64,000 nucleotides of DNA from Desulfatiglandales bacterium (lineage in GTDB: Bacteria > Desulfobacterota > DSM-4660 > Desulfatiglandales > Desulfatiglandaceae), in assembly GCA_963666345.1 (NCBI GenBank), contig OY762721.1, forward strand, positions 768,001 to 832,000. The letters are read 5' to 3'. The notes beneath the pieces are model-generated. The model searched no databases. It saw only the letters and a list, made by a program, of their open reading frames with translations, and had not been told where the DNA came from. This document shows, in pieces, positions 19,705 to 43,570 of the stretch. Position numbers and translations under genes: made by a program. Numbering within the stretch: the first letter of the stretch is position 1; each line of letters opens with the position of its first letter.

Positions 19705-19745
19705 TGCGTCCAGCGGCGTATGATCCTTTATTGCTGCTGGACGCA
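19705..19745 (+). other. Intercistronic stem-loop after the binding-protein gene
   Basis: TGCGTCCAGCGGCG...TTGCTGCTGGACGCA with no U-tract; likely stabilises the mRNA. Confidence 0.6.
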
Positions 19746-19769
19746 AAACACAAACGGGGAGAATGTTAC

Positions 19770-20291: not shown

Positions 20292-20302
20292 GAGGTGACA
20301 CA

Positions 20303-21616
20303 GTGCTGCAACAATATTTGATGCATCAACAGGATCTCACCCTCGGATGGGACTTTTATTTACCTTTGATTGCGATGGTTGTTCTTATTGCACTGGCCGC
20401 CAGGATCTGGGTGGTGGTTGGTGTAGGCTCGCTGGCAATGCTCCTGGCAACCGGCGTATTGCCCCCCACACTGATGGGCGAAGCCCTGTTCGACGGAATA
20501 GACTCCTTTGCGCTGATCGCGGTTCCCCTCTTCATCCTAACCGGAGACGTGCTGGTTCGAACGGGCCTGTCGAACAAGCTCCTTGATGTGGCGGAGGCGA
20601 CCATGGGCGCCCAGCGTTCAGGGTTGGGTACTTCTACGGTCTTGGGGTGCGGATTTTTTGCATGCATTTCCGGCTCCGACGCGGCGGATGCCGCAGCGAT
20701 CGGACGGATTACAATCCATCGCCTTGAGGAAAAAGGGTACCCCAAACCTTATGCCTGCGCCCTTGTTGCGGCAGGTGCATGCACAGGGATTCTTATTCCA
20801 CCTTCAATTTCCTACATCATAATCGGGCTGGTTTTAGGAATTTCAGCTTCCACCCTGTTTATGGCCGCAGCTATCCCTGGAGTATTAATTCTTTTGTCCA
20901 TCATGGTAACCAACGCAATAGTCAACCGCTTCAAAAGGTACGAAGATTCCAGTAGAGGCTTCAATTTCAAGTACTGGCTCAAGACCATATATGACGGCAA
21001 ATACGCACTGACTATTCCGATTATCATACTTGGGGGCATATACTCAGGCGTCTTCACTCCCACTGAGTCCGCTGCGGTAGCCGCAGCCATAACCATGATC
21101 ATCGGTTTTATCCAGAAAACCATCGGGCTGAAAGATATTCCCAAGATGCTGGAAACCTCAGCCAAGGTGAGCGGGGTGATTGTTCCCATCATTGCTATGT
21201 CCCTTCCCCTTGCACAGACCCTGGCCTCCCTGCAGGTGCCCCAGTATTTCGTGCATACCATGACTTCCCTCACGGAGAACCCCTACCTGATCATGCTGAT
21301 CATGCTGGGAGTTTTGATTATCGCCGGATGTATCATGGAGACCACGCCGAATATCGTGATCCTTGCACCTATTCTTTTGCCCCTGGCCCAGGAAATAGGC
21401 ATGGACGAGATTCATTTCTGTATCTTCTTTGTAACTGCATTGGGAATAGGGTTTATCACACCGCCGATGGGACTCAACCTGTTCGTGGTTTCGGGTGTTA
21501 CCCGTACGCCGGTTCTGTCCATCTCCCGTTATGCGGTGTACTTTGTAATCACCATGTTGATAGTGGAAATTATCATCATGACCGTGCCGTGGATTTCGCT
21601 GTGGCTGATACGCTGA
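20303..21616 (+). CDS. hpsM: TRAP large permease (DctM), HpsM-like
   Basis: LIAVPLFIL, ISGS, GILIPPS, FTPTE, GFITPPMGLNLFV. Confidence 0.9.
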   Translation: MLQQYLMHQQDLTLGWDFYLPLIAMVVLIALAARIWVVVGVGSLAMLLATGVLPPTLMGEALFDGIDSFALIAVPLFILTGDVLVRTGLSNKLLDVAEATMGAQRSGLGTSTVLGCGFFACISGSDAADAAAIGRITIHRLEEKGYPKPYACALVAAGACTGILIPPSISYIIIGLVLGISASTLFMAAAIPGVLILLSIMVTNAIVNRFKRYEDSSRGFNFKYWLKTIYDGKYALTIPIIILGGIYSGVFTPTESAAVAAAITMIIGFIQKTIGLKDIPKMLETSAKVSGVIVPIIAMSLPLAQTLASLQVPQYFVHTMTSLTENPYLIMLIMLGVLIIAGCIMETTPNIVILAPILLPLAQEIGMDEIHFCIFFVTALGIGFITPPMGLNLFVVSGVTRTPVLSISRYAVYFVITMLIVEIIIMTVPWISLWLIR

Positions 21617-23600: not shown

Positions 23601-24461
23601 ATGTTATTCGGAATTGTTGGAGTCGGAAATATGGGAGGCGGCATTGCCAGAAACCTTATCAGGGCCGGGAAAGATCTACTTATCTATGACATAAATGAAG
23701 AGGCCGCGGCGAAGGTGGCTGAAACAGGACCGACAGGCAAGGTTGCCAAAGGCGTAGATGAATTGGCCGCAGCAGATGTCGTCTTCACAAGCCTTCCCCT
23801 TCCCCAGCATATTGAAGGTGTAATGCTCGGGGATGACGGACTGTTAAACAAGATGAAGAAGGGCTCCACCTATATAGAGGTAAGCACTATCGATCCCAAG
23901 TCAGCCAGAAAACTTTCTGATGCCTGCGATGAAAAAGGGATAGATTTTCTGGAATGTCCTCTGGGCAAGACACCTGCGGCAACGGAAAAGGCGGAAGAAC
24001 CCATCTTTGTAGGCGGAAAAAAAGAGGTATTTGAAAAAATGAAGGACCTGCTCGACATACTAGGATCTGATGCCTACTACATGGGAGAGGTGGAGGCATC
24101 AAGCGCCTTCAAACTCATAAGCAACATGATAGGGATGACCAACCTAGCCGTGCTCGCAGAAGGAATCAGGATCGGAGAAAAGGCCGGCATCGACAAGAAG
24201 ATGCTCATAGAACTTCTGGACGATACAGGCGCCAAGAGCTTCCAGATGGATGTAAGAGGCCCCTGGATAGTTAATGGGGACTTCCAGAATCGCTTCGGAC
24301 TCGATCTCGCCTTAAAGGATGTCAGGCTTGGCTGTGAAATGGCCGACGCCTGGGGAAACGATGCAACTACCATGAAGGTGGCCCTCGACTATTTCAAGAA
24401 GGCAAGTTCCGAAGGCCTAGGAAAAGATGACTGTAACGCGATCTATAAGATAATCAAATAG
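23601..24461 (+). CDS. Beta-hydroxyacid dehydrogenase family, YihU/DhpA-like (putative DHPS dehydrogenase / sulfolactaldehyde reductase)
   Basis: GVGNMG Rossmann motif, catalytic K in FKLISN, ECPLGKT in place of the canonical DAPVSGG. Confidence 0.8.
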   Translation: MLFGIVGVGNMGGGIARNLIRAGKDLLIYDINEEAAAKVAETGPTGKVAKGVDELAAADVVFTSLPLPQHIEGVMLGDDGLLNKMKKGSTYIEVSTIDPKSARKLSDACDEKGIDFLECPLGKTPAATEKAEEPIFVGGKKEVFEKMKDLLDILGSDAYYMGEVEASSAFKLISNMIGMTNLAVLAEGIRIGEKAGIDKKMLIELLDDTGAKSFQMDVRGPWIVNGDFQNRFGLDLALKDVRLGCEMADAWGNDATTMKVALDYFKKASSEGLGKDDCNAIYKIIK

Positions 24462-24573: not shown

Positions 24574-24618
24574 GCCCGATATTAGGCTTTGAAACTTAAC
24601 CCAAGCCTAATATTGGGC
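24574..24618. promoter_or_regulatory. Paired upstream activator boxes of suyAB
   Basis: GCCCGATATTAGGC (24574-24587) and GCCTAATATTGGGC (24605-24618). Confidence 0.8.
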
Positions 24619-24693: not shown

Positions 24694-24708
24694 TGGCATG
24701 AATGTTGC
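24694..24708 (+). promoter_or_regulatory. Sigma-54 (-24/-12) promoter of suyAB
   Basis: TGGCATGAATGTTGC, close to TGGCAC-N5-TTGC. Confidence 0.8.
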
Positions 24709-24963: not shown

Positions 24964-25242
24964 ATGACGGATTTTTTGATTCATGAAAAGGCTGACACCG
25001 TAGGTGTGGCCACTGTTGACATCAAGGCCGGTGAAACGGCTGAGGGTCTTTACATGGACACCCAGGAAAAAATCACAAAAAAGGCGCTTCAGGACATACC
25101 TCTTGGCCACAAGATCGCACTGAGGGACCACAAGGTGGACGAAGGCGTGATCAAATACGGTCATGACATCGGCAGGGTGGTTGCCGACTTCAAGGATGGA
25201 GAACATGTCCACATTCACAATCTGAAGACCAGGAGGTGGTAA
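24964..25242 (+). CDS. suyA: Sulfolactate sulfo-lyase small subunit (SAF domain)
   Basis: [41 protein letters not shown]. Confidence 0.85.
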
Positions 25243-25244
25243 GA

Positions 25245-26408
25245 ATGAGTAATCGTAAAGTATTAGGGTATCGAAGAGAAAACGGTCGCGTCGGGATCCG
25301 CAACCATGTCGCAATTCTTCCCCTGGACGATCTGTCCAATGCGGCATGCGAGGCGGTGGCAAACAATATAAAGGGAACCAGGGCACTGCCCCACCCATAC
25401 GGCAGGCTGCAGTTCGGTGAGGATCTTGAGCTGTTTTTCCGCACAATGATAGGCACCGGCTCAAACCCCAATGTAGCTGCCGTCGTTGTAATAGGCATAG
25501 AACCTGAATGGACGAACAGGATAGTGGAAGGAATAAGAAAGACCGGAAAGCCTGCCGAAGGCTTTTCAATTGAGCGTACCGGCGATATCGGCACCATTGC
25601 AAAGGCATCCTGGAAGGCCAAAGAATTCGTCCACTGGGCCTCCGAGCTGAGAAGAGAGGAAGTAGACCTGTCCGAGATCTGGGTATCGGTAAAGTGCGGA
25701 GAGTCCGACACTACTTCAGGCCTCGCATCCAACCCTACGGTTGGAAACGCGATCGACAAGCTGGTGGAAATGGGCGCAACCTGCTCCTTCGGGGAGACCT
25801 CCGAGATCACCGGCGCAGAGGATGTGTGCCAGGCAAGGGCAGCCACGCCGGAGCTTGGTGAGGCCTTCATGAAGATTTGGAACGACTATAATGATTTCAT
25901 AAACGAAAACAAGACGGACGACCTCTCAGGCTCCCAGCCCACCAAGGGAAACATCAGGGGCGGGCTGACCACGATCGAAGAAAAAGCCTTCGGAAACCTC
26001 CAGAAGATCGGCAAGAAGTCCAACTACGTAGGGGTTCTTGGGCCGGCAGAGGCACCAACAGGCCCAGGCCTCTGGTTTATGGACACCTCATCGGCGGCGG
26101 CCGAGGCGGTCACCCTCTGGATGGCGGCAGGCTTCGTATGCCATTTCTTCCCCACCGGTCAGGGTAATATCATCGGCAACCCGATTGAGCCGGTGATCAA
26201 GCTTTCAGCCAATCCGCTGACGGTTTCCACCATGGTCGAGCATATCGATTATGACTGCTCAGGCATACTTCGCGGTGAGATGACACTGGATGAATCCGGG
26301 GATAACCTGCTTAACATGCTTGAGAGGACCTGTAACGGCAGAAGAACTTCTCAGGAGGTACTGGGACATTTCGAATACGTGCTCACCAAACTGTACAGAA
26401 GCGCGTAA
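25245..26408 (+). CDS. suyB: Sulfolactate sulfo-lyase large subunit (UxaA family)
   Basis: [53 protein letters not shown]-terminal KLYRSA, all characteristic of SuyB. Confidence 0.88.
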
Positions 26409-26612: not shown

Positions 26613-27323
26613 CTAGAAACTGTCGATATCCCATGCATTTTTCAGGTCATCGTAGACGCTTGCGAGATGAAGTTCCATGGCTCTTTTGGCACCCTGTACG
26701 TCATGCTCGCGGATTGCATCAATGGTTGCCTTATGCTGGCGTGCAGACTCAAGTATCCTGCCCGGAATCGAGTGCGTATGCTTGCTGAATGCGGCAAGAT
26801 AGGTAAGGAGGCTCTGCATCAGATCTACTATTATTGTATTTTTTGATATCCTGGCGACACATAGATGAAACTTCCGGTCCAGTTCACCGAACCTGACAAG
26901 GTTGTTTTCCTCCAGCAATATCTTATTTGTTTCTTCGGCAAGAAGGTTCAACTCAGTGATATCCGATTCCTCGCAATTCGCTGCAGCCCATCCGGCAGTG
27001 GAGGTTTCCAGCACTTCTCTAACCTGAAACAGATTCTTGGCCAGATGGCGATTCAGAGTAAGGAGACTTGAAAGCTGACGTGCAACCGTTTCCCCGTTGA
27101 CATCAGCGACAAAGATTCCTGATCGATGCTTTACCTGTAAAATTCCCAGCCCGTTCAAAGTGTTTACAGCATCACGAATAACAGTGCGACTTATATTGAA
27201 ATCGGTCGCCATCTTCCTCTCAGGGGGAAGCCTGTCGCCAGCCTTTAACCGGTGCTGAATTATGTATTTCTCTATTCTACCTACTGCCTGATCTTTGAGG
27301 GACCTTGTTTTTTCCGTGGGCAT
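26613..27323 (-). CDS. GntR/FadR-family transcriptional regulator
   Basis: GDRLPPER..A..FNISRTVIRDA wHTH plus FCD domain (DRKFH, QH, MELHL). Confidence 0.92.
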   Translation of the reverse strand: MPTEKTRSLKDQAVGRIEKYIIQHRLKAGDRLPPERKMATDFNISRTVIRDAVNTLNGLGILQVKHRSGIFVADVNGETVARQLSSLLTLNRHLAKNLFQVREVLETSTAGWAAANCEESDITELNLLAEETNKILLEENNLVRFGELDRKFHLCVARISKNTIIVDLMQSLLTYLAAFSKHTHSIPGRILESARQHKATIDAIREHDVQGAKRAMELHLASVYDDLKNAWDIDSF

Positions 27324-27752: not shown

Positions 27753-29294
27753 ATGCGTGTTATTCTTATTATATCAGATACCTTTAGGTATGATTTATTG
27801 GCAAAAGAGGGGAAAATGGCCGCCAGCACCCCGGAATTGGATCAACTTATCGAGGATTCGGTGTTTTTCGAACGTCATTACGCCGGAAGCTTCCCCACTG
27901 TTCCGCACCGGTTCGACATGTACACCGGGACATGCGGATTTCCTTACAGGGGATGGGAGATACTCGGACCTAAGGATATTACCCTTGGCGAAATTCTTAT
28001 GGACCACGGCTATATCACGCAACTTATTGCGGATACGGCCAACCTGCTGCGGCGCGGGATGAACTATGATCGCGGCTATCTGGGCTATTATCTTACACGC
28101 GGCCAGGAACGGGATATATACCTCACAAAAATGAACCGCCCTATTGAGTATGTTATTCCTCTTGCCAAGTCTCGCCACACAACCTACTTTCGCGACCACG
28201 CCCAGGTGGATATAGCCAGATGGATCAATGATGAGTGGCTGTGGGAAGAAGACCGCTTTGCGGCACGCACGTGTCAGGTGGCGGGGCGATGGCTTGAATC
28301 AAACTACAAGGAGGAGAACTTCTTTCTGCACCTTGACATGTTTGATCCACATGAGCCGTGGGATCCACCGGAATACTTTGTCGCAAAATATGCCGACCCT
28401 GAATATAAAGGCACACCCATGATGTATCCGAATTACGGCCCGGCCGATATATTTACCGAGGCTGAAATAGACAACATGTCGGCCCACTACAAGGCGGAAG
28501 CTGAAATGACCAGCAAGTGGATAGGCAATGTGATCCGTAAGATAAAAGATGTGGGCATATATGATGAAAGCCTTATCATTTTTGCTAGTGATCACGGCCT
28601 GTACCTGGGCGAGCATAATAGAACCGGTAAGCTTAACATCTCCAAAGATGACAAACGTGGGCCCTGGCCGCTCTATGAAGAGCTGATTCGCGTCCCGTTG
28701 GCCATAAAGATGCCGGGTAACAAACTGGCGGGGAAAAGAATAACTGAGATAGTGCAGCCCGTTGATCTGCTGCCGACTATTCTCGATATTGCAGGCATAT
28801 CGACTGATCAGAAGCTGCCGGCAAAAGCGCTTCTGCCTGATCGCGAAATCATAATGGAAAATCCCGGGATAATCCTAGGCCGCGAGAAAGGCCTGAATCC
28901 CCTTGACGGAAAATCTCTTGTTCCTCTCATGGAAAATGACGCGATTTCATGGGACCGCAGATACGCCTTTTCATCTCAGAAGGTTGGAAGGGTAGGAGGA
29001 CAGACATCAGGGCCTATGCCTGTGCTGCCTGAAGCAGAAGATACAGTAAACTGGATTACCGTTACAGGCAAGCAGCATGCACTGGTAATCGGAGGAAAGC
29101 GGGATGACCTCCCCGAGCTTTACGACCTTGAAAGTGACGGGCGGCAGGCAAATAATATCTTTTCCGAAAAAAGAGAACTTGCCCAGGAGATGGCTGGTGC
29201 CCTCTTCACCTATCTTGAACAGAACAACGTTGAAAGCGACCTTATAGATATTTATCGCACAAGGCTCGATATAGGTGACAAAACCGATGCCTAG
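27753..29294 (+). CDS. Sulfatase-like hydrolase (alkaline phosphatase superfamily) with Thr at the nucleophile position
   Basis: SDTFRYD, GSFPTVPHR...TG, DPHEPW, SDHG, LYEELIRVPL, DLLPTILD. Confidence 0.85.
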   Translation: MRVILIISDTFRYDLLAKEGKMAASTPELDQLIEDSVFFERHYAGSFPTVPHRFDMYTGTCGFPYRGWEILGPKDITLGEILMDHGYITQLIADTANLLRRGMNYDRGYLGYYLTRGQERDIYLTKMNRPIEYVIPLAKSRHTTYFRDHAQVDIARWINDEWLWEEDRFAARTCQVAGRWLESNYKEENFFLHLDMFDPHEPWDPPEYFVAKYADPEYKGTPMMYPNYGPADIFTEAEIDNMSAHYKAEAEMTSKWIGNVIRKIKDVGIYDESLIIFASDHGLYLGEHNRTGKLNISKDDKRGPWPLYEELIRVPLAIKMPGNKLAGKRITEIVQPVDLLPTILDIAGISTDQKLPAKALLPDREIIMENPGIILGREKGLNPLDGKSLVPLMENDAISWDRRYAFSSQKVGRVGGQTSGPMPVLPEAEDTVNWITVTGKQHALVIGGKRDDLPELYDLESDGRQANNIFSEKRELAQEMAGALFTYLEQNNVESDLIDIYRTRLDIGDKTDA

Positions 29295-29406: not shown

Positions 29407-29450
29407 GCCCAATAATAGGCACCCGGACGGGTCATTGCCTATTATTGGGC
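29407..29450. promoter_or_regulatory. Paired upstream activator boxes of larA-tctCAB
   Basis: GCCCAATAATAGGC (29407-29420) and its exact reverse complement GCCTATTATTGGGC (29437-29450). Confidence 0.82.
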
Positions 29451-29523: not shown

Positions 29524-29538
29524 TGGCACGTAAATTGC
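29524..29538 (+). promoter_or_regulatory. Sigma-54 promoter of larA
   Basis: TGGCACGTAAATTGC, a consensus match. Confidence 0.88.
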
Positions 29539-29582: not shown

Positions 29583-30872
29583 ATGGATGTCGAGCTAAAA
29601 TATGGGAAGGGGTCCAGATTGATCAAGATCCCTTCAAAGGCTAAGGTGACCATGCTGAACCCTGCTACCCTTCCTGCATTGGGAAATATTTCAGGGTCAC
29701 TTGATTCGGCCTTGTCCTCCCCGGTAGAACGGCCCGCTCTAGTGGACTATCTTTCGGAAAAAAGGCCCAAAACCATTTCCATTGCCATTTCCGACGAAAG
29801 CAGACCGGTACCGGTCAAAGCCATCATCCCTTCACTCCTCAAGCATCTCTATAAAGCGCTTCCCGGCCTAAAGCCTTCTGACGTGACGATTGTGATAGGA
29901 GGTGGCCTGCATCCGCCCCCCGATAAAGCGGGTATAGAGAGGATCATCCCCTCTTCTCTGACCCAGGGTTGCAGAGTGACGGCACATGATGCCATCTCCT
30001 CGAAAGTCAGCGATTTCGGAGTAACTACGCGCGGAACCCCGGTACGCATAAATCGGGAATTGGCAACTGGTGACTGCAAGATCTCCATCGGCCTCATAGA
30101 CCCCCATCAGTTCGTCGGTTTTACAGGGGGCGCAAAGGGTGTGGTAATAGGCTGTGCCGCCGCGGAAACCATCGAACATAATCACAAGCTCATGTATGAA
30201 GACAACGCCCAGGTCGGCAGGCTGGAGGGCAACCCCGTAAGGGAGGACCTGAATGAGGCGGGGGACCGGGTGGGGATAGATTATGCGATAAATGTGGTGC
30301 TTAACGGGGATAAAAAGGCTGTTGAACTTTTTTGCGGAGAGCCGAAAGCGGTGCTTAAAAAGGGAGCTGCCGTATGTGCCTCCCTGTACGGGGTAGGGAT
30401 AAAGAAAAAGTTTGATATGGTTATTGCGTCATGTGGGGGTTTTCCAAAGGATATCTGTCTGTATCAGGCCCAGAAGGGGCTAAATCTTGCTTCACATGCC
30501 GTTAGGGAAGGTGGGAAAATCCTGCTTCTGGCCGCCTCTTCTCAGGGAGTGGGAGATGACGTTTATTTGGACTATGTCTCGCGCTTTGCAACTCCCCGGG
30601 AGGTTCTTGATGACTTTGCCGAAAGTGGATTCAAGATGGGCGCTCACAAGGCATATCTGTTCGGAAGGACCCTTGCCAGTTATGATGTTGCGGTGGCCTC
30701 CGAGCTCGATGCCGATGTTCTGAGGACCTGCCAGCTCAAGGCCGTAGCCCCTGACTCTACCATTGAGAAATGGGTCAGGGATTTCGAGGGGCGCCCGCGC
30801 GTCGCGGTCGTCCCCAATGCAAATACAACCTATTTTTACCAGGAAGGACTTGAAATAAAGGGGCAAAAATAA
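29583..30872 (+). CDS. larA: LarA-family nickel-pincer alpha-hydroxyacid racemase/epimerase
   Basis: SDESRP, GGLH, PHQFVGFTGGAK, HNH, GNPVRED, YQAQKG retain LarA catalytic and cofactor residues. Confidence 0.9.
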   Translation: MDVELKYGKGSRLIKIPSKAKVTMLNPATLPALGNISGSLDSALSSPVERPALVDYLSEKRPKTISIAISDESRPVPVKAIIPSLLKHLYKALPGLKPSDVTIVIGGGLHPPPDKAGIERIIPSSLTQGCRVTAHDAISSKVSDFGVTTRGTPVRINRELATGDCKISIGLIDPHQFVGFTGGAKGVVIGCAAAETIEHNHKLMYEDNAQVGRLEGNPVREDLNEAGDRVGIDYAINVVLNGDKKAVELFCGEPKAVLKKGAAVCASLYGVGIKKKFDMVIASCGGFPKDICLYQAQKGLNLASHAVREGGKILLLAASSQGVGDDVYLDYVSRFATPREVLDDFAESGFKMGAHKAYLFGRTLASYDVAVASELDADVLRTCQLKAVAPDSTIEKWVRDFEGRPRVAVVPNANTTYFYQEGLEIKGQK

Positions 30873-31150
30873 GACGGGAGGCCAAAAGGTTTCATCGAAG
30901 TTTGAGCAGGCTTTCAAGAATGAACAATCGAGAAAGAACCGGCTCTTAACTGCCGATTCTTCTAAATCGATGAGGCGAATACCAGAGGCATGAGTTTCTG
31001 CTCACCAGGCCTATCGGGAATGCACAATAATCTTTGGTCCTTACCCGGTTTTTCGGATAAGATTCGGTTTGTAAAGGGGTGCATCTACAATTTAACAGGA
31101 ACGGCTGAGCACTCCGCAGCTTTTCCACTGACGTAAGGAGGCTAGTTACA

Positions 31151-32104
31151 ATGAAAAAAGCATTATTTACTATCTTTGTTTTTCTTTGCGTGTGTGCCTT
31201 CACCATGCCGGCAATGGCGGCAGACAAGTATCCTTCAAGGCCTATAACCTACCAGGTGGCATTTCCTCCCGGCGGCCAATCAGACCTTGAAGCACGAAGG
31301 CAGCAGCCCTACCTGGAAAAAATTCTTGGACAAAAGGTCATTATTCAGTACAAACCGGGCGGAGGGGGATCCATCTGCTGGGCTGATCTTGTAAAACAGA
31401 AACCGGACGGTTATTTCGTAGCCGGTTTTAACGTTCCCCACATTGTCCTTCAGCCACTTGCTCGCGGCAACGCCGGATATGAAACCGATCAGCTTACCCC
31501 TATCGCCATCTTTCAGGCTACCGCGCTGGGTCTTGCCGTAATGAAAGATTCCCGTTTCAAGACGATTAAGGACCTGGTGGAATTCGCTAAAAAGCACCCC
31601 GGTGAAGTCGTTGCGGGTGGTTCGGGCACATGGTCGGGTCCCCACCTGGCATTTCTGCAGTTCTGCACACTTGCCGGCATCGAGATGACCTGGATTCCTT
31701 ATAAAGGGGCAGCCCCGGGGGTAGCCGCATTCCTTGGCAAGCATATTGAGATTACCCTTGCCAATTCCAATGACCTTGTATCTCATAAGGATAAGATTCG
31801 TGTACTTGCAATGGGCACGGAGGAACGCTTCAAACACTTTCCCGACACACCCACTTTTCAGGAGCTGGGCTATGACATGACCGCCAGTGTTGACCGCGGC
31901 TTGGCCGGACCTCCGGGGTTTCCCGAGGAAGCGGTCAAAGTCCTTGAAAAGGCATGCCTTGATATCGCCTCAAAGCCAGAGGTGGTTGCAGCCCTTGAAC
32001 GTGACGGATTCGTGGTAAGGAAAATGAATGCCGCACAGACAAAGGCCTACATTGAAAAGAAGAAGGCACAGTTGCTTCCGATCCTGAAGGCCTCCAAAAA
32101 ATAG
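31151..32104 (+). CDS. tctC: Tripartite tricarboxylate transporter substrate-binding protein
   Basis: Signal peptide, YP.RPI, FPPGG.SD, KPGGGG, KPDGY, PYKG, PTF.E.G. Confidence 0.9.
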   Translation: MKKALFTIFVFLCVCAFTMPAMAADKYPSRPITYQVAFPPGGQSDLEARRQQPYLEKILGQKVIIQYKPGGGGSICWADLVKQKPDGYFVAGFNVPHIVLQPLARGNAGYETDQLTPIAIFQATALGLAVMKDSRFKTIKDLVEFAKKHPGEVVAGGSGTWSGPHLAFLQFCTLAGIEMTWIPYKGAAPGVAAFLGKHIEITLANSNDLVSHKDKIRVLAMGTEERFKHFPDTPTFQELGYDMTASVDRGLAGPPGFPEEAVKVLEKACLDIASKPEVVAALERDGFVVRKMNAAQTKAYIEKKKAQLLPILKASKK

Positions 32105-32133
32105 GTGGCGTTTTAGGCCCTTGTTACTAAACC

Positions 32134-32157
32134 GCAGGGGGGCCTTGGTCCCCCTGC
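32134..32157 (+). other. Intercistronic hairpin after tctC
   Basis: GCAGGGGGGCC-TT-GGTCCCCCTGC. Confidence 0.6.
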
Positions 32158-32179
32158 CTATAATCTAGGTGTAAAAATC

Positions 32180-33730
32180 ATGTTTGATGCGGCTCTTACC
32201 GGTTTACTCAATGTCTTTGAGTTTTGGAATTTTCTCTGCCTCTTCGGTGGGGTAGTAATGGGGATCGTTTTCGGGGCCCTTCCGGGCCTCACCGCTACCA
32301 TGGGCCTGGCCCTGCTTATCCCTTTTACCTTTACCATGACCCCTGCCGCCGGCCTGATAATGCTGGCGGGCATCTATGTGGGTGCCATGTACGGAGATTC
32401 AATCCCGGCAATTCTTATCAACACACCGGGCACTCCCGCGGCTATTGCCACCACTTTTGACGGATTTCCTCTTGCCCAGAAGGGTATGGCCCAGCACGGT
32501 CTTGTGGCAGCGGCCATCGCCTCCGCGTTCGGATCCCTTGTGGCAAATATCGTTCTTGCCACCGCCGCCCCACCCCTTGCCGAGGCATCCCTCAAGTTCG
32601 GTCCGCCCGAGTATTTCTGGCTGGGCATATTCGGACTGACTATTATCGCAACCCTTTCATCCGGTTTTATCTTTAAAGGTCTTCTGGGCGGCACCTTCGG
32701 ACTTATACTCAGCACGGTCGGCATGTCACCCCTTGGAGGGGATGTAAGACTCACCTTCGGCTATCCCGAACTTCAGGCCGGCATAGAACTCATTGTCGCT
32801 CTCATAGGGTTTTTCTGTCTTCCTGAAATCCTGAGCAGTATTATCGGTCAGAGAAGGCAGTCATATTCTTCCCAGAAGGTCGTGCCGACACTTAGCGTTA
32901 TATGGGAAGTAACCACATCTTTGCTCAAAAAACCGGTTCTCATGTTTCGGTCCTCTATAATTGGAACGATTATAGGATTTGCTCCCGGTGCCGGGGGAAA
33001 TATTGCCAGCATGGTTTCCTATAACGAGGCATGCCGTTGGGATAAAAATCCGGAAGAATTCGGAAAAGGCACTATCAAGGGAGTAGCCGCATCCGAGGCC
33101 GCTAACAGCGCGATGGCGCCGGGCTCTCTTATACCTCTGCTTACCTTGGGGATACCCGGCTCTCCTCCTTCGGCGGTCATATTGGGGGCACTCATGCTCC
33201 ACGGCATGAGACCCGGAGTAGAGCTTTTCAGCGTACATGTTGTGACAACCTACTCCTTTATTATGGGTTTGCTCGTTGCTGCTTTTCTGGTAACGATTAT
33301 CGGCAGCTTCGGCTCCTTTGTATATGCGAGGATAATCAATATCCCCGCCAGATTTCTCGCACCGGCAGTGGTGTTCATGACTATTCTCGGGTCCTATGCC
33401 ATCAGGAACAACATCCTTGACGTATGGATCATGTTTTTGTTCGGAGTCATAGGCTACGCCAGCAATAAGCTTAAGTTTCATCCCGCACCGATCGTACTGG
33501 GGCTTATCTTAGGTCCATTCGTCGAAGAGGGACTTGTCCAGTCCATGCTTGCGGGGAAGGCCTCGGGCAGCGTTATCGGTTATATGACCTTAAGGCCTAT
33601 ATCTGCTGTCCTGATCGGGTTGTGCGTCATGTCGGCCGGCTGGCCGTTGTTTGCCTCATGGCGGACCAAAAGACGGGAAAAGGCTAAAGCCTGTGCCTGT
33701 GATGTGGAGGATACTAATGTTAAACGCTGA
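32180..33730 (+). CDS. tctA: TTT large permease
   Basis: GALPGL, AILINTPGTP, FGPPEYF, PLLTLGIPG. Confidence 0.92.
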   Translation: MFDAALTGLLNVFEFWNFLCLFGGVVMGIVFGALPGLTATMGLALLIPFTFTMTPAAGLIMLAGIYVGAMYGDSIPAILINTPGTPAAIATTFDGFPLAQKGMAQHGLVAAAIASAFGSLVANIVLATAAPPLAEASLKFGPPEYFWLGIFGLTIIATLSSGFIFKGLLGGTFGLILSTVGMSPLGGDVRLTFGYPELQAGIELIVALIGFFCLPEILSSIIGQRRQSYSSQKVVPTLSVIWEVTTSLLKKPVLMFRSSIIGTIIGFAPGAGGNIASMVSYNEACRWDKNPEEFGKGTIKGVAASEAANSAMAPGSLIPLLTLGIPGSPPSAVILGALMLHGMRPGVELFSVHVVTTYSFIMGLLVAAFLVTIIGSFGSFVYARIINIPARFLAPAVVFMTILGSYAIRNNILDVWIMFLFGVIGYASNKLKFHPAPIVLGLILGPFVEEGLVQSMLAGKASGSVIGYMTLRPISAVLIGLCVMSAGWPLFASWRTKRREKAKACACDVEDTNVKR

Positions 33731-34163
33731 TCTTATTGTTGGAATATCTTCTTTTGTTTTAGGGGGAATCCTCTACTTTTCGTCACGGGGCCTGAGCAAA
33801 CTGGGGGGAATTTTCGTTAACTATGTGCTCGTGGCAATTTTTCTGCTGGCTGCGGTGATGTTTGTTAAAGGGCTGATAAAGCCGGAAAAGCTTGCCTTTT
33901 TCGAATCGGTTATTGAACGGAACAACATCCTGATCGGAATAATCATCCTGTTTCTTTACCTTATTATCATGCCTTGGATAGGTTTTCTGATATCGAGTTA
34001 TATCTTTTATTTCGCCTTCAACACATATCTTGCGGAAAACCGCTGGAGCAACAGAAATATCCTCCAGTCCATGGCATTGAGCGCGATTGTGGTCACCTTC
34101 TTTTATATCATTTTCCACCACGTGCTGCAGGTCCCACTTCCTGTCGGATCATTTTTTGAATAG
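33717..34163 (+). CDS. tctB: TTT small permease
   Basis: Four to five TM helices, C-terminal L.VPLP.G. Start ATG 33717 after GGAGG. Confidence 0.85.
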   Translation: MLNADLIVGISSFVLGGILYFSSRGLSKLGGIFVNYVLVAIFLLAAVMFVKGLIKPEKLAFFESVIERNNILIGIIILFLYLIIMPWIGFLISSYIFYFAFNTYLAENRWSNRNILQSMALSAIVVTFFYIIFHHVLQVPLPVGSFFE

Positions 34164-34204: not shown

Positions 34205-35752
34205 TCAAAAAGAGGAGGCCCTGTAATCACTTGGGTTCAGATTGAATTTTCTCAATCGGTATTGAAGGGTTGAACGAGGAAGACCCAGGATCCTGGCCGC
34301 ACCGTTTTTTCCGCCTACGGCCCCGCTGCATTTTATAAGAACCCCTTCAATATGCCTGCGCTCTATCTCAGCCAGGGTGAGGTCACCAGCGGCTACAGGC
34401 GTATCAGGGAAAGGGCCCAGCAGGGCGGAGATATCATTTGCATCTATATGATCCCCGGGTCTCAATATTACCATCCTCTTTATCAGGTTCTTCAGTTCCC
34501 TAACGTTTCCCGGCCACTGATACCGGCACAGCATATCGATGGCACCTTCCGAATATGAAGGAGGAAGCCTGTTGATTAATTTCGCCTGGAGGCCGGTCAG
34601 TTTTCTCATCAGAATCGGCACGTCTTCTACCCTCTCCCTGAGAGGGGGAACATGCACATTCACGATATTGAGCCGGTAGAAGAGATCCTTTCTGAATTTT
34701 CCCTCCTTTATCATGAGATCAAGGTCCCTGTTGGTGGCTGCAACCACCCTGAAATCAACCTTGATCGGCCTGCTGTCACCCACCCTTTCAAAGCGGCGCT
34801 CCTGAAGTACATTAAGCATCTTTGCCTGGAGGCTGAGCGGCAGTTCCGAGACCTCATCCAGAAAAACAGTCCCTTTGTCAGCCATCTCAAAGCGGCCGAT
34901 ACGCTTGTCGTCGGCGCCGGTGAAGGCACCTTTTGCATGTCCGAAGAGTTCACTTTCAAAAAGGGATGCAGAAAGCGCGGGGCAGTTTATTTTGACAAAA
35001 AGGTTATCCCTTCTGGAACTGTATCGGTGTATGTAACGAGCCAGATAGTCTTTTCCCGTTCCCGTCTCCCCGCTTATAAGCACGGATGCGTCCGTATCGG
35101 CCACCTGATTCATCAGTTCCATTATATCCTGCATCTGCCTCGAGGAAAAATAAAAGGAATCCTCCTTATAGCCCTCATCGGCATCGGCAATGAGGAAATC
35201 TCTCTGTCTCATCAGATTTGCGTTTATTTTCTTTAGGTGGGTATAGGCAAGCATATTGTCGACCGCAATTGAAACCTGGTTGGTCACATCGGTCAGGACT
35301 TCGGTCAGTTCTTTCAGATAACAGGGAGGTCTTGTAAAGGAAAAATGGATGGTTCCCAGGATTCGATTACGCATGACAAGGGGAAATGCCATGGTCGACC
35401 TGAGACCCGCCTCAAGCATCGACTCTATCGACGGCAGATCGATATAGGATGTGAGATCCTCGATTATGACCGGTTTCATCGACCCGATAACCATGCGCGT
35501 AATAGGACCCTTTGACAGGGGCCTGCTGCCTTTGCATGAAATCCCCTCAGGGTCAATCCCATGGGCCGTTGCAAAATAGCTGATCGATTCGGTTTCGGAA
35601 TCATAAAGATTTATACTGAGCCTGTCATAAGGAAAATTCTTTCTAAGCTCCTTTGCAAGGGCCCTGAAAAGTTCTTCTCTTGTTGTGCGAGTCATTACCG
35701 CATTGTCTATACTCAGCAGAATCTGGTATCGCGCTTCAGTGCTCCAGCGCAT
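34205..35752 (-). CDS. Sigma-54 enhancer-binding activator (GAF + AAA+ + HTH, FhlA-like)
   Basis: GETGTGK, ESELFGH.KGAFTGA, FLDE, WPGNVREL, C-terminal HTH AARILGLPRSTL. Confidence 0.95.
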   Translation of the reverse strand: MRWSTEARYQILLSIDNAVMTRTTREELFRALAKELRKNFPYDRLSINLYDSETESISYFATAHGIDPEGISCKGSRPLSKGPITRMVIGSMKPVIIEDLTSYIDLPSIESMLEAGLRSTMAFPLVMRNRILGTIHFSFTRPPCYLKELTEVLTDVTNQVSIAVDNMLAYTHLKKINANLMRQRDFLIADADEGYKEDSFYFSSRQMQDIMELMNQVADTDASVLISGETGTGKDYLARYIHRYSSRRDNLFVKINCPALSASLFESELFGHAKGAFTGADDKRIGRFEMADKGTVFLDEVSELPLSLQAKMLNVLQERRFERVGDSRPIKVDFRVVAATNRDLDLMIKEGKFRKDLFYRLNIVNVHVPPLRERVEDVPILMRKLTGLQAKLINRLPPSYSEGAIDMLCRYQWPGNVRELKNLIKRMVILRPGDHIDANDISALLGPFPDTPVAAGDLTLAEIERRHIEGVLIKCSGAVGGKNGAARILGLPRSTLQYRLRKFNLNPSDYRASSF

Positions 35753-35893: not shown

Positions 35894-35907
35894 GCCCAAT
35901 AATGGGC
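35894..35907. promoter_or_regulatory. Single activator box upstream of the activator gene
   Basis: GCCCAATAATGGGC, the same motif as at suyA and larA. Confidence 0.7.
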
Positions 35908-36185
35908 ATCCGCAAAAACCACTTGCTCGCGTGGTAAAACCACGCGGCTTAATCTCATGGCTGATCCACCCCTTGGTTGAGGCAAAAAAACCATTGCTTT
36001 GACTTCCGCACACACCCCAAGATGCTGGATGCAAGGCGCCTGGGAGCCACAACCCAGGCGCATAACCTATTCGTCGCACAACTACTCAGGCGGGACAGGT
36101 ATTCGCATATATTGACTGAAAAGCGATGGGGCACTATACTATTTATTTAAGCCTCATGGAAAATTTGATCTTAAAGGGACTCCAA

Positions 36186-36404
36186 GTGGAAATTGATGTC
36201 AAGGTATTCATTAATTTGCGTGAAAATCGCAATTCCAAGGCCATCGTTGAGGAAGATTCAATGGCCGTTGAACTGCTGGAGTCCTTAGGTATCCCTATTT
36301 CCGATGTCGGTATCCTGCTTATAAATGATAAGCAGGCCCTCCTCGATCAAAGGCTTCAAAACGGGGACAAGGTAATTGTCATCCCGCCGACAGGGGGCGG
36401 GTAG
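36186..36404 (+). CDS. MoaD/ThiS-family sulfur carrier
   Basis: About 72 aa beta-grasp ending IPPTGGG. Probable GTG start at 36186. Confidence 0.85.
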   Translation: MEIDVKVFINLRENRNSKAIVEEDSMAVELLESLGIPISDVGILLINDKQALLDQRLQNGDKVIVIPPTGGG

Positions 36405-36449
36405 TCATACCTTCAGATCATTTGATGACGAGCCTCTTGGGGTGAATTC

Positions 36450-37223
36450 ATGAGTCTATCCATAAGATATAAAAGGCAGGCAGCCTTTCCAGGTCTGGGG
36501 GAAAATGGACAGGCGCTTCTTGGAGCGGCAAAAGTCGCTATTGTGGGTTGCGGGGGCCTCGGGTCCACCTTGGCAAGCTGCATGGCAAGGGCCGGGGTTG
36601 GAAACCTTACGATTATCGACCGTGACAGCCCGGATATCTCAAACCTGCACCGTCAATTCCTGTTCGATACATCTGATGTGGAAAAGGGTGCCAACAAGGC
36701 CCTGGCCGCAACTGAAAAGCTGCGCAGAGTGAACCCTGAAATAAAAATCTGTGGTTTACCGGAAAGACTTTCAAAAAAGAATTGCGACAAGCTCCTTGCC
36801 GGAAATGATCTTGTCCTGGATGGAACCGATAATTTTGAAACAAGGTATATCATAAACGACTGGTGCCTCAAAAACAAAGTACCCTGGATCTACGGCGGAG
36901 TTGACTCATCCATAGGGATGACCATGGTTATCAAAGCCGTCAAGGGTCCCTGCTTCAGATGCCTCTTTCCGTCACGCGTTGCTGAGGATCGGCCTTCTGA
37001 CGATCCTCAAAGAGGCATTATCAATACCGTTCCCGTTGTTATAGCCTCTTTTCAGGCAACTGAGGCATTCAAGCTTCTTACACAAAGCAATGATGTAATA
37101 GAAAACTTAAGGATAATAGATCTATGGTCCGGTGAATTCAGGACCGTTCAGATTGAAAGAAATCCTGTCTGTCCTTGCTGTTCATCTGAGCCTTCAAACA
37201 TGAACACCCTGCCGGACAAATAG
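36450..37223 (+). CDS. MoeB/ThiF-family adenylyltransferase
   Basis: RY.RQ, GCGGLG, SNLHRQ, DGTDNF, PCFRC, CPCC. Confidence 0.92.
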   Translation: MSLSIRYKRQAAFPGLGENGQALLGAAKVAIVGCGGLGSTLASCMARAGVGNLTIIDRDSPDISNLHRQFLFDTSDVEKGANKALAATEKLRRVNPEIKICGLPERLSKKNCDKLLAGNDLVLDGTDNFETRYIINDWCLKNKVPWIYGGVDSSIGMTMVIKAVKGPCFRCLFPSRVAEDRPSDDPQRGIINTVPVVIASFQATEAFKLLTQSNDVIENLRIIDLWSGEFRTVQIERNPVCPCCSSEPSNMNTLPDK

Positions 37224-37557
37224 CGCATCGCTAATTATTCCCACTCTTTTTCGTAAGCAAATCACCTTACACCCCTTATCTGCTGTTCCAACATGGCAGT
37301 GCATCGGCTTAAAATTCTTATTTTACACATTGTAAAAGATACTGACACCTTAGTTTCACTGATCAAAAAAAGATGCGTCGCATTTCATTTTATAAGCCCG
37401 TTATTCATTTACTCAAAGCCGACAAAATTATTATTGTTTTTCAAACAGGACCGGTAGGTTCGCAAACCAGAGCCAACGGATCATTTTCTCAAGATTTTTA
37501 TTAGACCATAGAGGACGAACCTGACAGATCCGTATCTTTTTGGGGGGATGGTCTTTC

Positions 37558-37572
37558 TGGCATATAAATTGC
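37558..37572 (+). promoter_or_regulatory. Putative sigma-54 promoter of the hdr-like operon
   Basis: TGGCATATAAATTGC. Confidence 0.65.
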
Positions 37573-37814
37573 CGTGTTTAAAAAGTTGGGATCAAGTAAT
37601 TTATAAGTCAGTGCTGGAAACCAAAAGAACTTAAAGTATTTTCATCCAAGATTGCCATTTATAATACTAATTTTCAAAATTTCAGACATCTTGACTTGAC
37701 AAACATCATATCCCTTTATAAAAAGCAGTTGCCGCTTAAAAAGGCACGGCAGTTTTTACGATTTCAGCCCTTGAGGCAATCTCCTGATTAACCAGTCAAT
37801 GCGGAGGTCCTAGT

Positions 37815-39569
37815 ATGGCTTTTACGGTATCCCTCTATGCCTCTCTAACAATATTCCTTTTAGGTCTTATATACAGGATATACATTTGGTTCTTTCGAAA
37901 AACCGGGATCTCTCCCAGAGACCTTACCACCTCAAAAAGGGCCTCTTCCGCCATAAAAGGGATAATTTCCGTAATTTTCAGCGCAAAGATTTTTAAACTA
38001 CTAAAGGCTTTTTTACTCGACATATTGTTTCAAAAAAGAATCCTGCAGGAAAGTTTTTTACGCTGGGTAATGCATATGCTCATATTCTGGGGCTTCATGC
38101 TCCTGCTCATCATGCATGCCCTCGATTCGATATTCTTTCCAGGTTCCAACTCTACGCTGAATCCCTTCTTTTTCCTACGAGACCTTTTCGGGCTCATGGT
38201 AATCATAGGTGTTGCGATAGCCGTATTCAGACGCTTTATTCTTAAGGTGCCAAGGCTGAAATCAAACGGGATGGACAAATATGCCGTAATCATACTCGCT
38301 GTGATCATGTTTTCAGGTATTTTTCTCACCGGGATGAAAATCACCTCCAGAAGCGAATTCATGGTCATGGTCGATGATTATGCAGGACTCGATGACGAGG
38401 AGGAAGTAAAGGCACTGGAAAGTTTATGGGTCAAGGAATTCGGTCTGGTGTCCCCTATAGTGAAAGGACCCTTTGAAGAGGAGACATTAGAGCAGGGAAG
38501 CGGACTGCATTCCGATTACTGTGCCGACTGCCATTCCTCCAACAAATCGGCATTTACAGGGTATGCCTTTGCAAAGATTATAAGCCCCTTTGCAGCGGCA
38601 CTGGATCGGGCCGGATTTGTGGGCATACTATGGTATATACATTTTCTTTCCTGCTTTGCGGGACTGGCCTACCTTCCCTTCAGCAAGATGCTCCATATCT
38701 TTTCAACACCGATGAGCCTTCTGGCAAATTCAGTAATGGACGAGGAAACATCAAGTCCTGAAAATATTGCAACAAGGCAGATCATGGAGCTTGACGCCTG
38801 CACTCACTGCGGCACATGCAGCCTTTACTGCTCAGCCATGATGGCCTACGAGGCAAGAGGGAACAGCTATATCCTCCCTTCGGAAAAGATGGTCGTTCTA
38901 AAGTCCATGGCAGCGGGGAAAAAGCTTACCGAAACCGAGGAAAGGGCAATCCTCGAAGGTATTTATCTCTGCACGAACTGTGACAGATGCACCGTAGTCT
39001 GTCCGTCAGGCATAAATCTGAAGGAGTTATGGATAAACGTAAGAGAACAACTGGTGCAGGAAGGACCTGCCGAGCCGTTCATGCTCTCTCCGCTTTCACT
39101 CGTAAGGGGCTTGAAAAGAGAGCGTGTCTCACCGGACGCATATCCCCTTCCCCTTGAGATGGCAGGCAAGGCGCTTTCAGGAAGATTCGATTCACTCATT
39201 GACGCGGAAGTTTCCATCAACCTTGATCAACCTGATGGAAACGGCCGTCTGCTCGCTGAAAGCACCTTTTCCTACTGTTTCGGCTGTCAGAACTGCTCGA
39301 CCGTTTGTCCCGTGGTTGAAAGTTATGAGAACCCGCAGGAGGAACTGGGGCTCCTCCCCCACCAAATCATGTGCTGTCTGGGGCTTGGACTAACCGAAAT
39401 GGCCTCCGGCGCTAAAATGATATGGGATTGTCTCACCTGCTATCAGTGCCAGGAACACTGCCCTCAAAACGTAAAGGTTACTGACATTCTCTATGAGCTG
39501 AAAAACATGGCCGTTGACAAATTTGAAGCAAAGATGGAGAAAGACGATCAAGCAGGCAAAGCTGCCTGA
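37815..39569 (+). CDS. Membrane-bound HdrC-like protein: NarI/HdrE-like TM domain, CxxCH and two Fe-S dicluster domains
   Basis: About five TM helices with His (WVMHML, IMHAL, YIHFL, KMLHIF), CADCH, then CTHCGTCSLYC/CTNCDRCTVVCP and CFGCQNCSTVCP/CLTCYQCQEHCP. Confidence 0.8.
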   Translation: MAFTVSLYASLTIFLLGLIYRIYIWFFRKTGISPRDLTTSKRASSAIKGIISVIFSAKIFKLLKAFLLDILFQKRILQESFLRWVMHMLIFWGFMLLLIMHALDSIFFPGSNSTLNPFFFLRDLFGLMVIIGVAIAVFRRFILKVPRLKSNGMDKYAVIILAVIMFSGIFLTGMKITSRSEFMVMVDDYAGLDDEEEVKALESLWVKEFGLVSPIVKGPFEEETLEQGSGLHSDYCADCHSSNKSAFTGYAFAKIISPFAAALDRAGFVGILWYIHFLSCFAGLAYLPFSKMLHIFSTPMSLLANSVMDEETSSPENIATRQIMELDACTHCGTCSLYCSAMMAYEARGNSYILPSEKMVVLKSMAAGKKLTETEERAILEGIYLCTNCDRCTVVCPSGINLKELWINVREQLVQEGPAEPFMLSPLSLVRGLKRERVSPDAYPLPLEMAGKALSGRFDSLIDAEVSINLDQPDGNGRLLAESTFSYCFGCQNCSTVCPVVESYENPQEELGLLPHQIMCCLGLGLTEMASGAKMIWDCLTCYQCQEHCPQNVKVTDILYELKNMAVDKFEAKMEKDDQAGKAA

Positions 39570-39658
39570 GGGTGATATAAATTGAGAGGGAGACACAAAA
39601 TCGACCAAACAACTTCATATGGGCCTGTCAAATACCAGGCCGGAGGTTTAATACGATC

Positions 39659-40537
39659 ATGATGAGGTACGCACTATTCATCGGCTGCCAAATCCCCTCC
39701 CGGGTCCCCCAATATGAGACTGCCTCCAGGGCGGTTTTAAAGAAATTGGGCGTCGATGTGGTGGATATAAGGCAGTTTAACTGCTGTGGTTATCCCTTGC
39801 GGAATGTGGACAAGAAGGCGTTTCTTCTTTCATCTGTACGAAATCTGGCCCTCGCCGAACAGAAGGGGCTCGACATGCTGGTTTTGTGCAAATGCTGCTT
39901 CGGAAGTCTCAAAAAGGCTGAACATATGATGAAGGAAGAAGGCGCTTTGCAGGATGAGGTCAGAAAAAGCCTTCAGAAAACCGGTCTGACCTACAAAGGT
40001 GAAACCAGGATATGTCATCTCCTGTCCGTGCTATTTCATGAAGTGGGAGTTGATACCTTAAAGGACAAACTATCAAAAACCTATAAAGGCCTTAATATAG
40101 CCACCCACTATGGGTGCCACGCGCTCAGACCAAGCGAGGTGACCCGGTTTGATGACCCGGTCGCTCCGTCCATCTTCGACAAGCTCGTTGCCGTTACAGG
40201 AGCCAAGAGCGTTGACTGGACCAATAAACTTGAGTGCTGCGGAGCTCCACTCATGGGAATTAATGACGAACTTTCCATGACCCTTACAATGAATAAGGTT
40301 AGAGAAGGTAAAAAGGCGGGAGCCCACTTTTTATGCACCTCCTGCCCATACTGTCAAATTCAGTTCGATACGGTTCAAGATATGATTATTTCCGGCGATG
40401 GAAACCAGGACTACTTACCCTCCATTCTTTTTCCTCAACTTCTGGGTCTTTCGATGGATATCGACCAGGAAGAACTGGGCCTTAAATTGAACAGAGTGGA
40501 TATTACCGAGATAGTATCGTATTTAAACGAGGAGTAG
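39659..40537 (+). CDS. hdrB: Heterodisulfide reductase subunit B
   Basis: Two CCG domains (GC..FNCCG..CKCC; YGCH..ECCG..CPYC), FPQLLGL. Confidence 0.9.
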   Translation: MMRYALFIGCQIPSRVPQYETASRAVLKKLGVDVVDIRQFNCCGYPLRNVDKKAFLLSSVRNLALAEQKGLDMLVLCKCCFGSLKKAEHMMKEEGALQDEVRKSLQKTGLTYKGETRICHLLSVLFHEVGVDTLKDKLSKTYKGLNIATHYGCHALRPSEVTRFDDPVAPSIFDKLVAVTGAKSVDWTNKLECCGAPLMGINDELSMTLTMNKVREGKKAGAHFLCTSCPYCQIQFDTVQDMIISGDGNQDYLPSILFPQLLGLSMDIDQEELGLKLNRVDITEIVSYLNEE

Positions 40538-40540
40538 ATA

Positions 40541-43500: not shown

Positions 43501-43570
43501 GGCCATAAATCTCAGGGGATTCGGAAACGATCAGATAATGGCTATGATTGATTCCTGTCTGGCAGTCTGA
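40541..43570 (+). CDS. hdrA: Heterodisulfide reductase subunit A-like flavoprotein, selenoprotein (Sec60), 1009 aa
   Basis: ATG 40541 gives [18 protein letters not shown]...[15 protein letters not shown](40718-40720)-IISPKL, in frame with ORF 40955..43570. The TGA sits at the second Cys of the DCxxC motif. Confidence 0.9.
40736..40753 (+). promoter_or_regulatory. Putative bacterial SECIS hairpin
   Basis: CTGGTCG-AGGT-CGGCCGG, a 7-bp stem with a G-containing loop, 15 nt after the UGA. Confidence 0.7.

Follow-up and report, generated by a model that had tools for sequence, protein, structure and literature searches.

The LarA homolog encoded in a 64,000-nt stretch of DNA from a Desulfatiglandales bacterium (contig OY762721.1, positions 768001-832000; hereafter called the window) is probably a racemase of 3-sulfolactate that depends on nickel-pincer nucleotide (NPN) as its cofactor. 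The window belongs to a 4.16-Mb single-contig genome that is 96.7% complete. Four open reading frames on the + strand at positions 29583-34163 correspond to larA, tctC, tctA, and tctB, as an initial annotation of this DNA had stated. The three tct genes encode a predicted importer of the tripartite tricarboxylate transporter (TTT) type that resembles the sulfolactate importer SlcHFG. On our reading, which is drawn from sequence comparison, the racemase and its importer would feed the (R)-specific sulfo-lyase SuyAB, and the sulfite released would be used for respiration. Sulfolactate is malate in which -SO3 replaces the distal -COO group.

The LarA homolog carries both domains of the family, Lar_N (PF09861, 3.7e-44) and LarA_C (PF21113, 8.5e-13). 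It scores 542 bits against the NCBIfam model NF052595, named 'nickel-dependent malate racemase, LarAH5 family', an equivalog model with a curated cut-off of 462 bits, and thus is a member of that family. The protein remains under the cut-off of the LarAH6 model (362 versus 500 bits) and also fails the LarA and LarAH10 models. The gene therefore belongs to a family that NCBI names malate racemase, and what we propose is the reassignment of the native substrate for a known family.

The nearest solved structure by sequence is that of Mar2 (6D6Z), which matches residues 2-421 with E = 1e-68, a match that settles the fold. The LarA reference positions checked were D72, R75, H108, H174, K184, H200, and K298, which include the catalytic His pair, the NPN-tethering Lys, and the ligands. 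The window protein, aligned with Mar2, retains the full set of catalytic and cofactor residues (D71, R74, H110, H175, K185, H201, Y294, Q295, and K298), and all nine are invariant in 13 of 13 aligned relatives. The earlier statement that the catalytic motifs are kept is therefore borne out. The same annotation had pointed to changes near the substrate site, SDESRP (residues 70-75) and PHQF (residues 174-177). Both sequences are present, but they are not peculiar to this gene. Sixteen other relatives, each either above the LarAH5 cut-off or at least 56% identical, were compared: 15 of them have D-E-[TS]-R, the exception being DQTR at locus L066, and all 16 have H-Q-F. In addition, Q and F at these positions are part of the published signature of LarA homolog group 5 (Dataset S2, PMC7583248), and the complete signature (the Q/F loop, Q297, and G-H-K) is present in the window protein. 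Because these residues are nearly universal in the relatives and belong to a published signature, they mark the LarAH5 family rather than this gene. We also looked for residues that divide suyAB-linked from unlinked LarAH5 proteins. E221 and Y358 differ between the two sets, but the differences follow the tree, and so they are not read as specificity determinants. An apparent in-frame stop in the larA homolog of locus L021 is merely its natural stop codon, which had been read through by tblastn.

The sole characterised member of LarAH5 is Mar1 (Dhaf_4417) from Desulfitobacterium hafniense (Desguin et al. 2020, PMC7583248). Mar1 falls in the same NCBIfam family as the window protein and has the same Q and F after the second catalytic His, the same Q before the catalytic Lys, and the same G-H-K in helix 14. 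It differs in having D-M-T-R-P where the window protein and its Desulfobacterota relatives have D-E-[ST]-R-P. The enzyme was published as a low-affinity malate racemase, with a KM for L-malate of 55 mM and a kcat/KM of 0.39 per s per mM, and Table 1 of that report records no lactate racemase activity. The corresponding values for Mar2 on malate are 0.38 mM and 185 per s per mM (PMC7583248). The 2020 study expressed doubt that malate is what Mar1 natively acts on and offered tartrate or 2-hydroxysuccinamate instead; 3-sulfolactate, which we propose for the window protein, is not among the substrates named in the sections of that paper covered here.

Mar2, the LarAH6 enzyme of Thermoanaerobacterium thermosaccharolyticum (6D6Z, 7S91), shares with the window protein the catalytic Asp, His, His, and Lys as well as the LYQAQK and GAHK sequences. 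However, its loop after the second catalytic His reads Y-K rather than Q-F, it has D-I-T-R in place of D-E-S-R, and its group is associated with malic enzyme and not with COG2721 (Table S1, PMC7583248).

COG2721 is the family of SuyB. In Table S1 of the 2020 study, COG2721 is listed under the name 'altronate dehydratase' 19 times for the 15 LarA homolog genes of group 5, together with TctC (5), TctA (5), and GAF-AAA-Fis regulators (3) (PMC7583248). All of these are neighbours of the window gene as well. Moreover, four species appear both in group 5 and among the suyAB candidates of Burrichter et al. 2018, namely D. hafniense, D. desulfuricans, Desulfomicrobium baculatum, and Desulfomonile tiedjei (PMC7583248, PMC6278857). 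D. hafniense DCB-2 is cited as using sulfolactate as an electron acceptor in a 2026 review (PMC12890257). No link to sulfolactate is drawn in the 2020 paper or its 2024 follow-up, in both of which the word stem 'sulfo' occurs zero times (PMC7583248, PMC11770544). Our literature search, which lay outside subscription-only literature, found no description of a LarA-type or nickel-containing sulfolactate racemase.

The association of this type of LarA homolog with suyAB is conserved well beyond the window. In a genome collection, suyA(B) lies downstream of the homolog in all five evaluable loci at 56-62% identity, which come from Nitrospinaceae, Desulfobacterales, Desulfobulbaceae, and Desulfopila metagenome-assembled genomes; in four it is directly downstream and in one a distance of 3.8 kb intervenes. 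A contig end truncates a sixth locus, and a seventh, at 35% identity, is without suyAB. Among 401 genomes of the phylum, 12 encode a protein above the LarAH5 cut-off, 18 encode a SuyB ortholog (65-100% identity), and eight have both, compared with approximately 0.5 expected if the two were independent, which kin are not. When this genome is left aside, 11 LarAH5 genomes remain in the phylum; seven of them have suyAB within 11 kb of the gene, and one has a contig that ends at the gene itself. For the next-best LarA homologs, which score 388-411 bits, suyAB is found in the flanks of none of nine.

Metagenome loci show the same association graded by sequence identity. From the best 80 of 459 confirmed matches, 15 loci with too little flanking sequence were set aside. 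At 55% identity or above, 32 of 35 evaluable loci have suyA or suyB on the same strand no more than 700 nt downstream, and the count is also 32 when the genes are sought anywhere in the locus. At 45-54% identity, these counts are five and eight of 26, and below 45% identity they are zero and zero of four. In a FastTree phylogeny of 78 full-length proteins, the window protein is placed in a group of 29 with a support value of 94, consisting of 28 suyAB-linked members and one that is unevaluable; on the whole tree the linkage label requires six changes.

A second line of evidence comes from the promoter regions. The window was scanned in full for the complete 15-nt -24/-12 pattern of sigma-54 promoters with up to two mismatches, and sites of this quality are not enriched (47 found, 52 expected). 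Only two sites in the window, those ahead of larA and suyA, have both no more than one mismatch and an inverted-repeat site. Inverted repeats of the same 14-nt word precede both promoters, 74-76 nt upstream, and a single palindrome of that word at 35894-35907 lies upstream of the start of a gene for a sigma-54 enhancer-binding protein with a GAF domain. The claim that regulatory boxes are shared with suyAB thus takes a concrete form, in that each unit has a sigma-54 promoter and an inverted-repeat site. In the spacer between larA and tctC, we found neither a sigma-54 site with up to two mismatches nor a terminator-like site.

Seven relatives share this layout. A sigma-54 promoter is located 40-71 nt before the start of their larA homologs, and words of the GCCCAATAWT type are located 70-95 nt further upstream. 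In six of the seven, an activator gene orthologous to that of the window (54-64% identity) lies upstream on the opposite strand, and the contig of the other (L024) is without an activator match. All of the elements of a sigma-54 regulon are present in this organism, including rpoN. The shared promoter and enhancer layout, together with its conservation in relatives, argues that a single regulon under the control of the GAF-domain activator very probably comprises suyAB and larA-tctCAB.

The genomic setting of suyAB is consistent with the metabolism of C3 sulfonates. SuyA and SuyB form a split pair of a small subunit and a UxaA-type large subunit with GD_AH domains. JGI gives homologs of SuyB at 82-87% identity the name '(2R)-sulfolactate sulfo-lyase subunit beta', which is an annotation and not an assay, and a Desulfovibrio protein is 86% identical; suyB is the only match in this genome at E <= 1e-120, and SuyA is 47-82% identical to the SuyA proteins of relatives. 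In Desulfovibrio sp. DF1, 2,3-dihydroxypropane-1-sulfonate (DHPS) is oxidised by the HIBADH-annotated dehydrogenase DhpA and by SlaB, with the possible participation of a ferredoxin-coupled aldehyde oxidoreductase, and the resulting sulfolactate is then cleaved by SuyAB (Burrichter et al. 2018, PMC6278857). The window contains enzyme types of the DF1 pathway beside a transporter of the tripartite ATP-independent periplasmic (TRAP) type, and these also occur together in the clusters of relatives.

A stereochemical mismatch would create the need for a racemase. SuyAB acts on (R)-sulfolactate, and the (S) configuration is believed to predominate in sulfolactate and DHPS of natural origin. In Taurinivorans muris, the genes slcHFG-slcC-comC neighbour suyAB, and SlcC together with ComC inverts the stereocentre via sulfopyruvate (PMC11193023, PMC10507020). 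This two-dehydrogenase 'sulfolactate racemase', known from Chromohalobacter salexigens and T. muris, keeps the same company of a TTT importer and suyAB and performs the same job that we propose here, conversion of (S)- to (R)-sulfolactate. However, the SlcC/ComC system needs a pair of NAD(P)-dependent enzymes and passes through free sulfopyruvate, whereas the window encodes one enzyme of another protein family that would use a bound nickel-pincer hydride carrier; it would work in a similar way without being a member of that system. A gene of the ComC family (Ldh_2, PF02615) has no match in the genome. The importer is also organised like SlcHFG of Roseovarius nubinhibens and C. salexigens, with three TTT components encoded beside sulfolactate genes and tctB after tctA, as is reported for slcHFG systems (PMC5812351). 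The tctC-A-B order that the initial annotation described downstream of larA therefore agrees with that of the known sulfolactate importers.

Active LarA enzymes rely on the products of larB, larC, and larE, which the initial annotation had placed outside the window and elsewhere in the genome. All three are found there, each once above its cut-off and scattered over the chromosome: larB (NF033503, 297 bits, cut-off 175), larC (PF01969, 459 bits), and larE (TIGR00268, 294 bits, cut-off 150). The genome also carries dsrA (574 bits, cut-off 393), so sulfite can be respired, and a weaker match to the DsrA family (99 bits) just downstream of it is possibly dsrB. Several further Lar_N matches represent LarA paralogs. 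Contig positions 3914287-3917161 (locus L018, 768-3642) hold a second case of a LarA homolog partnered with a split dehydratase of the UxaA type, in the order 102-aa small subunit, 395-aa UxaA-family protein, and 421-aa LarA homolog. The latter passes the model NF052515, 'NPN-dependent isomerase, group 22', with 512 bits against a cut-off of 400.

Contigs assembled from RNA libraries of four marine-sediment runs of one study are 90-99% alike to this region. They cover suyA-suyB, tctC, parts of larA, tctA, and tctB, and nearly all of the larA-tctC spacer. These contigs are a weak hint of expression in situ, since carry-over of DNA is possible and the contigs do not show transcript ends. Regions that they leave uncovered, including most of larA's length in part and the stretch with the GntR and sulfatase-family genes, are uninformative because such contigs cannot show absence, and matches from DNA runs with small shares (marsh, sludge, soil) are likewise uninformative about habitat.

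From the comparisons above, we infer the substrate of the racemase, the ligand of the transporter, the effector of the activator, and the stereochemical need for the enzyme. Sulfolactate would be imported by TctCAB or, alternatively, might be made inside the cell from DHPS that is brought in by the TRAP transporter and oxidised via sulfolactaldehyde by the DhpA-like dehydrogenase and the aldehyde:ferredoxin oxidoreductase. The racemase would transiently oxidise C2 to give sulfopyruvate on the NPN cofactor and return the hydride to either face, such that (S)- and (R)-sulfolactate are interconverted. SuyAB would cleave the (R) form to pyruvate and sulfite, with the latter presumably respired via DsrAB. 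The GAF-domain activator, responding probably to sulfolactate, would bind the shared inverted repeats and switch on suyAB and larA-tctCAB together.

Several observations weigh against this proposal. To our knowledge, activity on sulfolactate has been measured for no LarA homolog. The family is curated under the name malate racemase, and Mar1 has been shown to racemise malate in vitro. The linkage to suyAB is also incomplete, because three of the 10 evaluable LarAH5 genomes in the phylum are without suyAB nearby and encode only UxaA paralogs of 38-39% identity elsewhere, and 18 of the 26 metagenome loci at 45-54% identity likewise have no suyAB nearby. Some of the LarAH5 loci without suyAB have glutamate mutase genes, an RraA-like aldolase, or other transporters. 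Genomes and contigs that are related do not count as independent samples, and the RNA-library contigs could reflect DNA carry-over. In the window itself, larA is 3.2 kb from suyAB, and a gntR gene and a sulfatase-family gene intervene. In the literature covered, neither the stereospecificity of SuyAB in anaerobes nor the configuration of the sulfolactate produced by DhpA-like and aldehyde oxidoreductase enzymes is established. Finally, 10 of the 18 SuyB-bearing genomes are without LarAH5, and an Ldh_2 gene lies beside suyAB in only one of these (G207), far away in four, and nowhere in five. Many users of SuyAB therefore manage without either racemase or use another. A complementary distribution, in which SuyB genomes would have either LarAH5 or ComC, was considered and is not clean, and it gives no support either way.

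Other arrangements of LarA homologs were encountered during this survey. In a sister clade at 53-54% identity, two loci (L119:1908-7039 and L165:7360-13858) have the gene flanked by a TauE/SafE sulfite exporter and a 2-oxoacid:ferredoxin oxidoreductase, with no suyAB; the second also has a class-I fumarase-like gene nearby. This arrangement may represent another sulfonate route. Two LarAH5-scoring genes at 39% identity (L063:237-7298 and L067:2333-10669) accompany tctC/tctA and genes for glutamate mutase (MutL, MutE), which suggests a different substrate for their branch. In genome G375, a larAH5 gene at 54% identity (L059:2423-4693) is found with GntR and tctCAB genes approximately 5 kb from two genes with NIR_SIR domains (sulfite-reductase-like), in a neighbourhood that also has nifU/nifS-like genes; the only SuyB relative in this genome is a 38% paralog. 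In one genus of this phylum (G079:C1:3094764-3099308; G146:C18, G391:C3, G293:C5), another LarA homolog recurs 2-3 kb from an Ldh_2-family dehydrogenase gene. This homolog scores approximately 285 bits on the LarAH5 model, under its cut-off, and the pair is not beside suyAB.

The main rival to a sulfolactate racemase is an enzyme that acts on malate or as a racemase or epimerase on a close C4 hydroxy-dicarboxylate such as tartrate, with the TTT system importing that compound and the link to suyAB reflecting shared regulation of anaerobic organic-acid use. We consider this unlikely, although it accounts for the name of the equivalog model, for the in vitro activity of Mar1, and for the alternatives suggested by its authors. 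Also in its favour, TTT systems classically carry di- and tricarboxylates (PMC5812351), and the pocket residues Q297 and G353-H355-K356 are common to the window protein and the true malate racemase Mar2. The affinity of Mar1 for malate is, however, low (KM 55 mM), and no malic enzyme, malate dehydrogenase, or fumarase is found among the genes annotated between 10158 and 48147. Malate also lacks a C3 leaving group for an enzyme of the UxaA/SuyB type, yet such an enzyme is the constant neighbour of the family. Here, that neighbour is orthologous to proteins that carry a SuyB annotation and is located beside enzyme types of the DHPS pathway.

It is less likely still that the enzyme serves the sulfonate island by acting on some other 2-hydroxy acid, such as glycerate or lactate formed downstream or a sulfonated hydroxy acid that the neighbouring sulfatase-family enzyme would set free. 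The sulfatase-family gene is immediately upstream of larA, and the sister-clade loci described above pair a LarA homolog with TauE exporters and 2-oxoacid:ferredoxin oxidoreductases without SuyAB. Promiscuity towards small 2-hydroxy acids is described for some LarA homologs (PMC11770544), but Mar1 showed no lactate racemase activity (Table 1, PMC7583248), and in the route from DHPS to SuyAB as it is described, no intermediate other than sulfolactate is a 2-hydroxy acid (PMC6278857). Furthermore, neither the sulfatase-family gene nor the GntR gene was found beside the larA homolog in the relatives' loci examined, which gives the two the look of a local insertion.

An inactive or cofactor-less relic, as might be imagined from the distance of larBCE to larA and from the several LarA paralogs in the genome, is very improbable given intact catalytic and NPN-binding residues, larB, larC, and larE above their cut-offs, a perfect sigma-54 promoter at larA, and RNA-library contigs that cover parts of the gene.

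Table 1. Features of the sulfolactate region, in window coordinates.
Feature	Position	Strand	Basis or remark
TRAP transporter dctPQM	18538-21616	+	Domain search; LacI regulator upstream
Aldehyde:ferredoxin oxidoreductase (AOR)	21667-23547	+	Domain search
HIBADH-type dehydrogenase (DhpA-like)	23601-24461	+	Domain search
Second copy of the upstream activating sequence (suyA side)	24574-24618	+	16-nt arms, 94% complementary; 76 nt upstream of suyA promoter
suyA sigma-54 promoter, TGGCATGAATGTTGC	24694-24708	+	1 mismatch
suyA	24964-25242	+	GD_AH domains in suyA-suyB pair
suyB	25236-26408	+	(2R)-3-sulfolactate sulfo-lyase large subunit, by domain and annotated homologs
GntR/FCD regulator	26613-27323	-	Divergent; between suyB and sulfatase-family gene
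Sulfatase-family gene	27753-29294	not given	Pfam; directly upstream of larA
Upstream activating sequence, inverted repeat GCCCAATAATAGGC-N16-GCCTATTATTGGGC	29407-29450	+	15-nt arms, 100% complementary; 74 nt upstream of larA promoter
larA sigma-54 -24/-12 promoter, TGGCACGTAAATTGC	29524-29538	+	0 mismatches; 45 nt before larA ATG
larAH5 (larA), 429 aa	29583-30872 from ATG; open frame from TTG 29565	+	Proposed 3-sulfolactate racemase
tctC/slcH-like periplasmic solute-binding protein	31151-32104	+	PF03401 at 8.9e-43
tctA/slcF-like large membrane subunit	32180-33730	+	PF01970 at 4.3e-142
tctB/slcG-like small membrane subunit	Ends 34163; start probably 33702 or 33717 (ATG); TTG 33651	+	PF07331 at 9.3e-14
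GAF / sigma-54 AAA+ / HTH_8 enhancer-binding protein	34205-35752	-	Domain search; would activate both promoters

Unlike in most relatives, the suyAB and larA halves are split in the window, and each is preceded by a promoter and an enhancer copy of its own. The usual sulfatase motif is C/S-x-P-x-R. The product of the intervening sulfatase-family gene has no obvious signal peptide and reads T-V-P-H-R in place of this motif, and therefore it may not be a formylglycine sulfatase. On the far side of the activator gene, the region 36126-43570 contains ThiS-like and ThiF/MoeB-like genes followed by an Hdr/Qmo-like set, whose products are an Fe-S protein of the membrane, a CCG protein resembling HdrB, and a flavoprotein resembling HdrA. 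The first Hdr-like gene has a sigma-54 element with one mismatch, TGGCATATAAATTGC, upstream of it at 37558-37572.

Extending the proposal from this gene to its family, the LarAH5 clade including Mar1 may well be a family of 3-sulfolactate racemases, with the GAF-domain activator serving as a sulfolactate sensor and TctC as a sulfolactate-binding protein. C3 sulfonates derived from sulfoquinovose represent a large flux in the sulfur cycle that ends as hydrogen sulfide in anoxic sediments and guts. If our reading is correct, the stereochemical gap in their breakdown would be filled in this organism by a single nickel-cofactor racemase, where the only known solution is a dehydrogenase pair whose ComC-family member has no match in its genome. 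The enzyme would be the first nickel-pincer enzyme to act on an organosulfonate and a one-protein replacement for the SlcC/ComC pair. The use of (S)-sulfolactate and (S)-DHPS from plant and algal sulfoquinovose by anaerobes that respire sulfite would thereby find an explanation. Moreover, such an enzyme would answer the question raised in 2020 about the native substrate of LarAH5 and Mar1 and would correct the curated name of the family.

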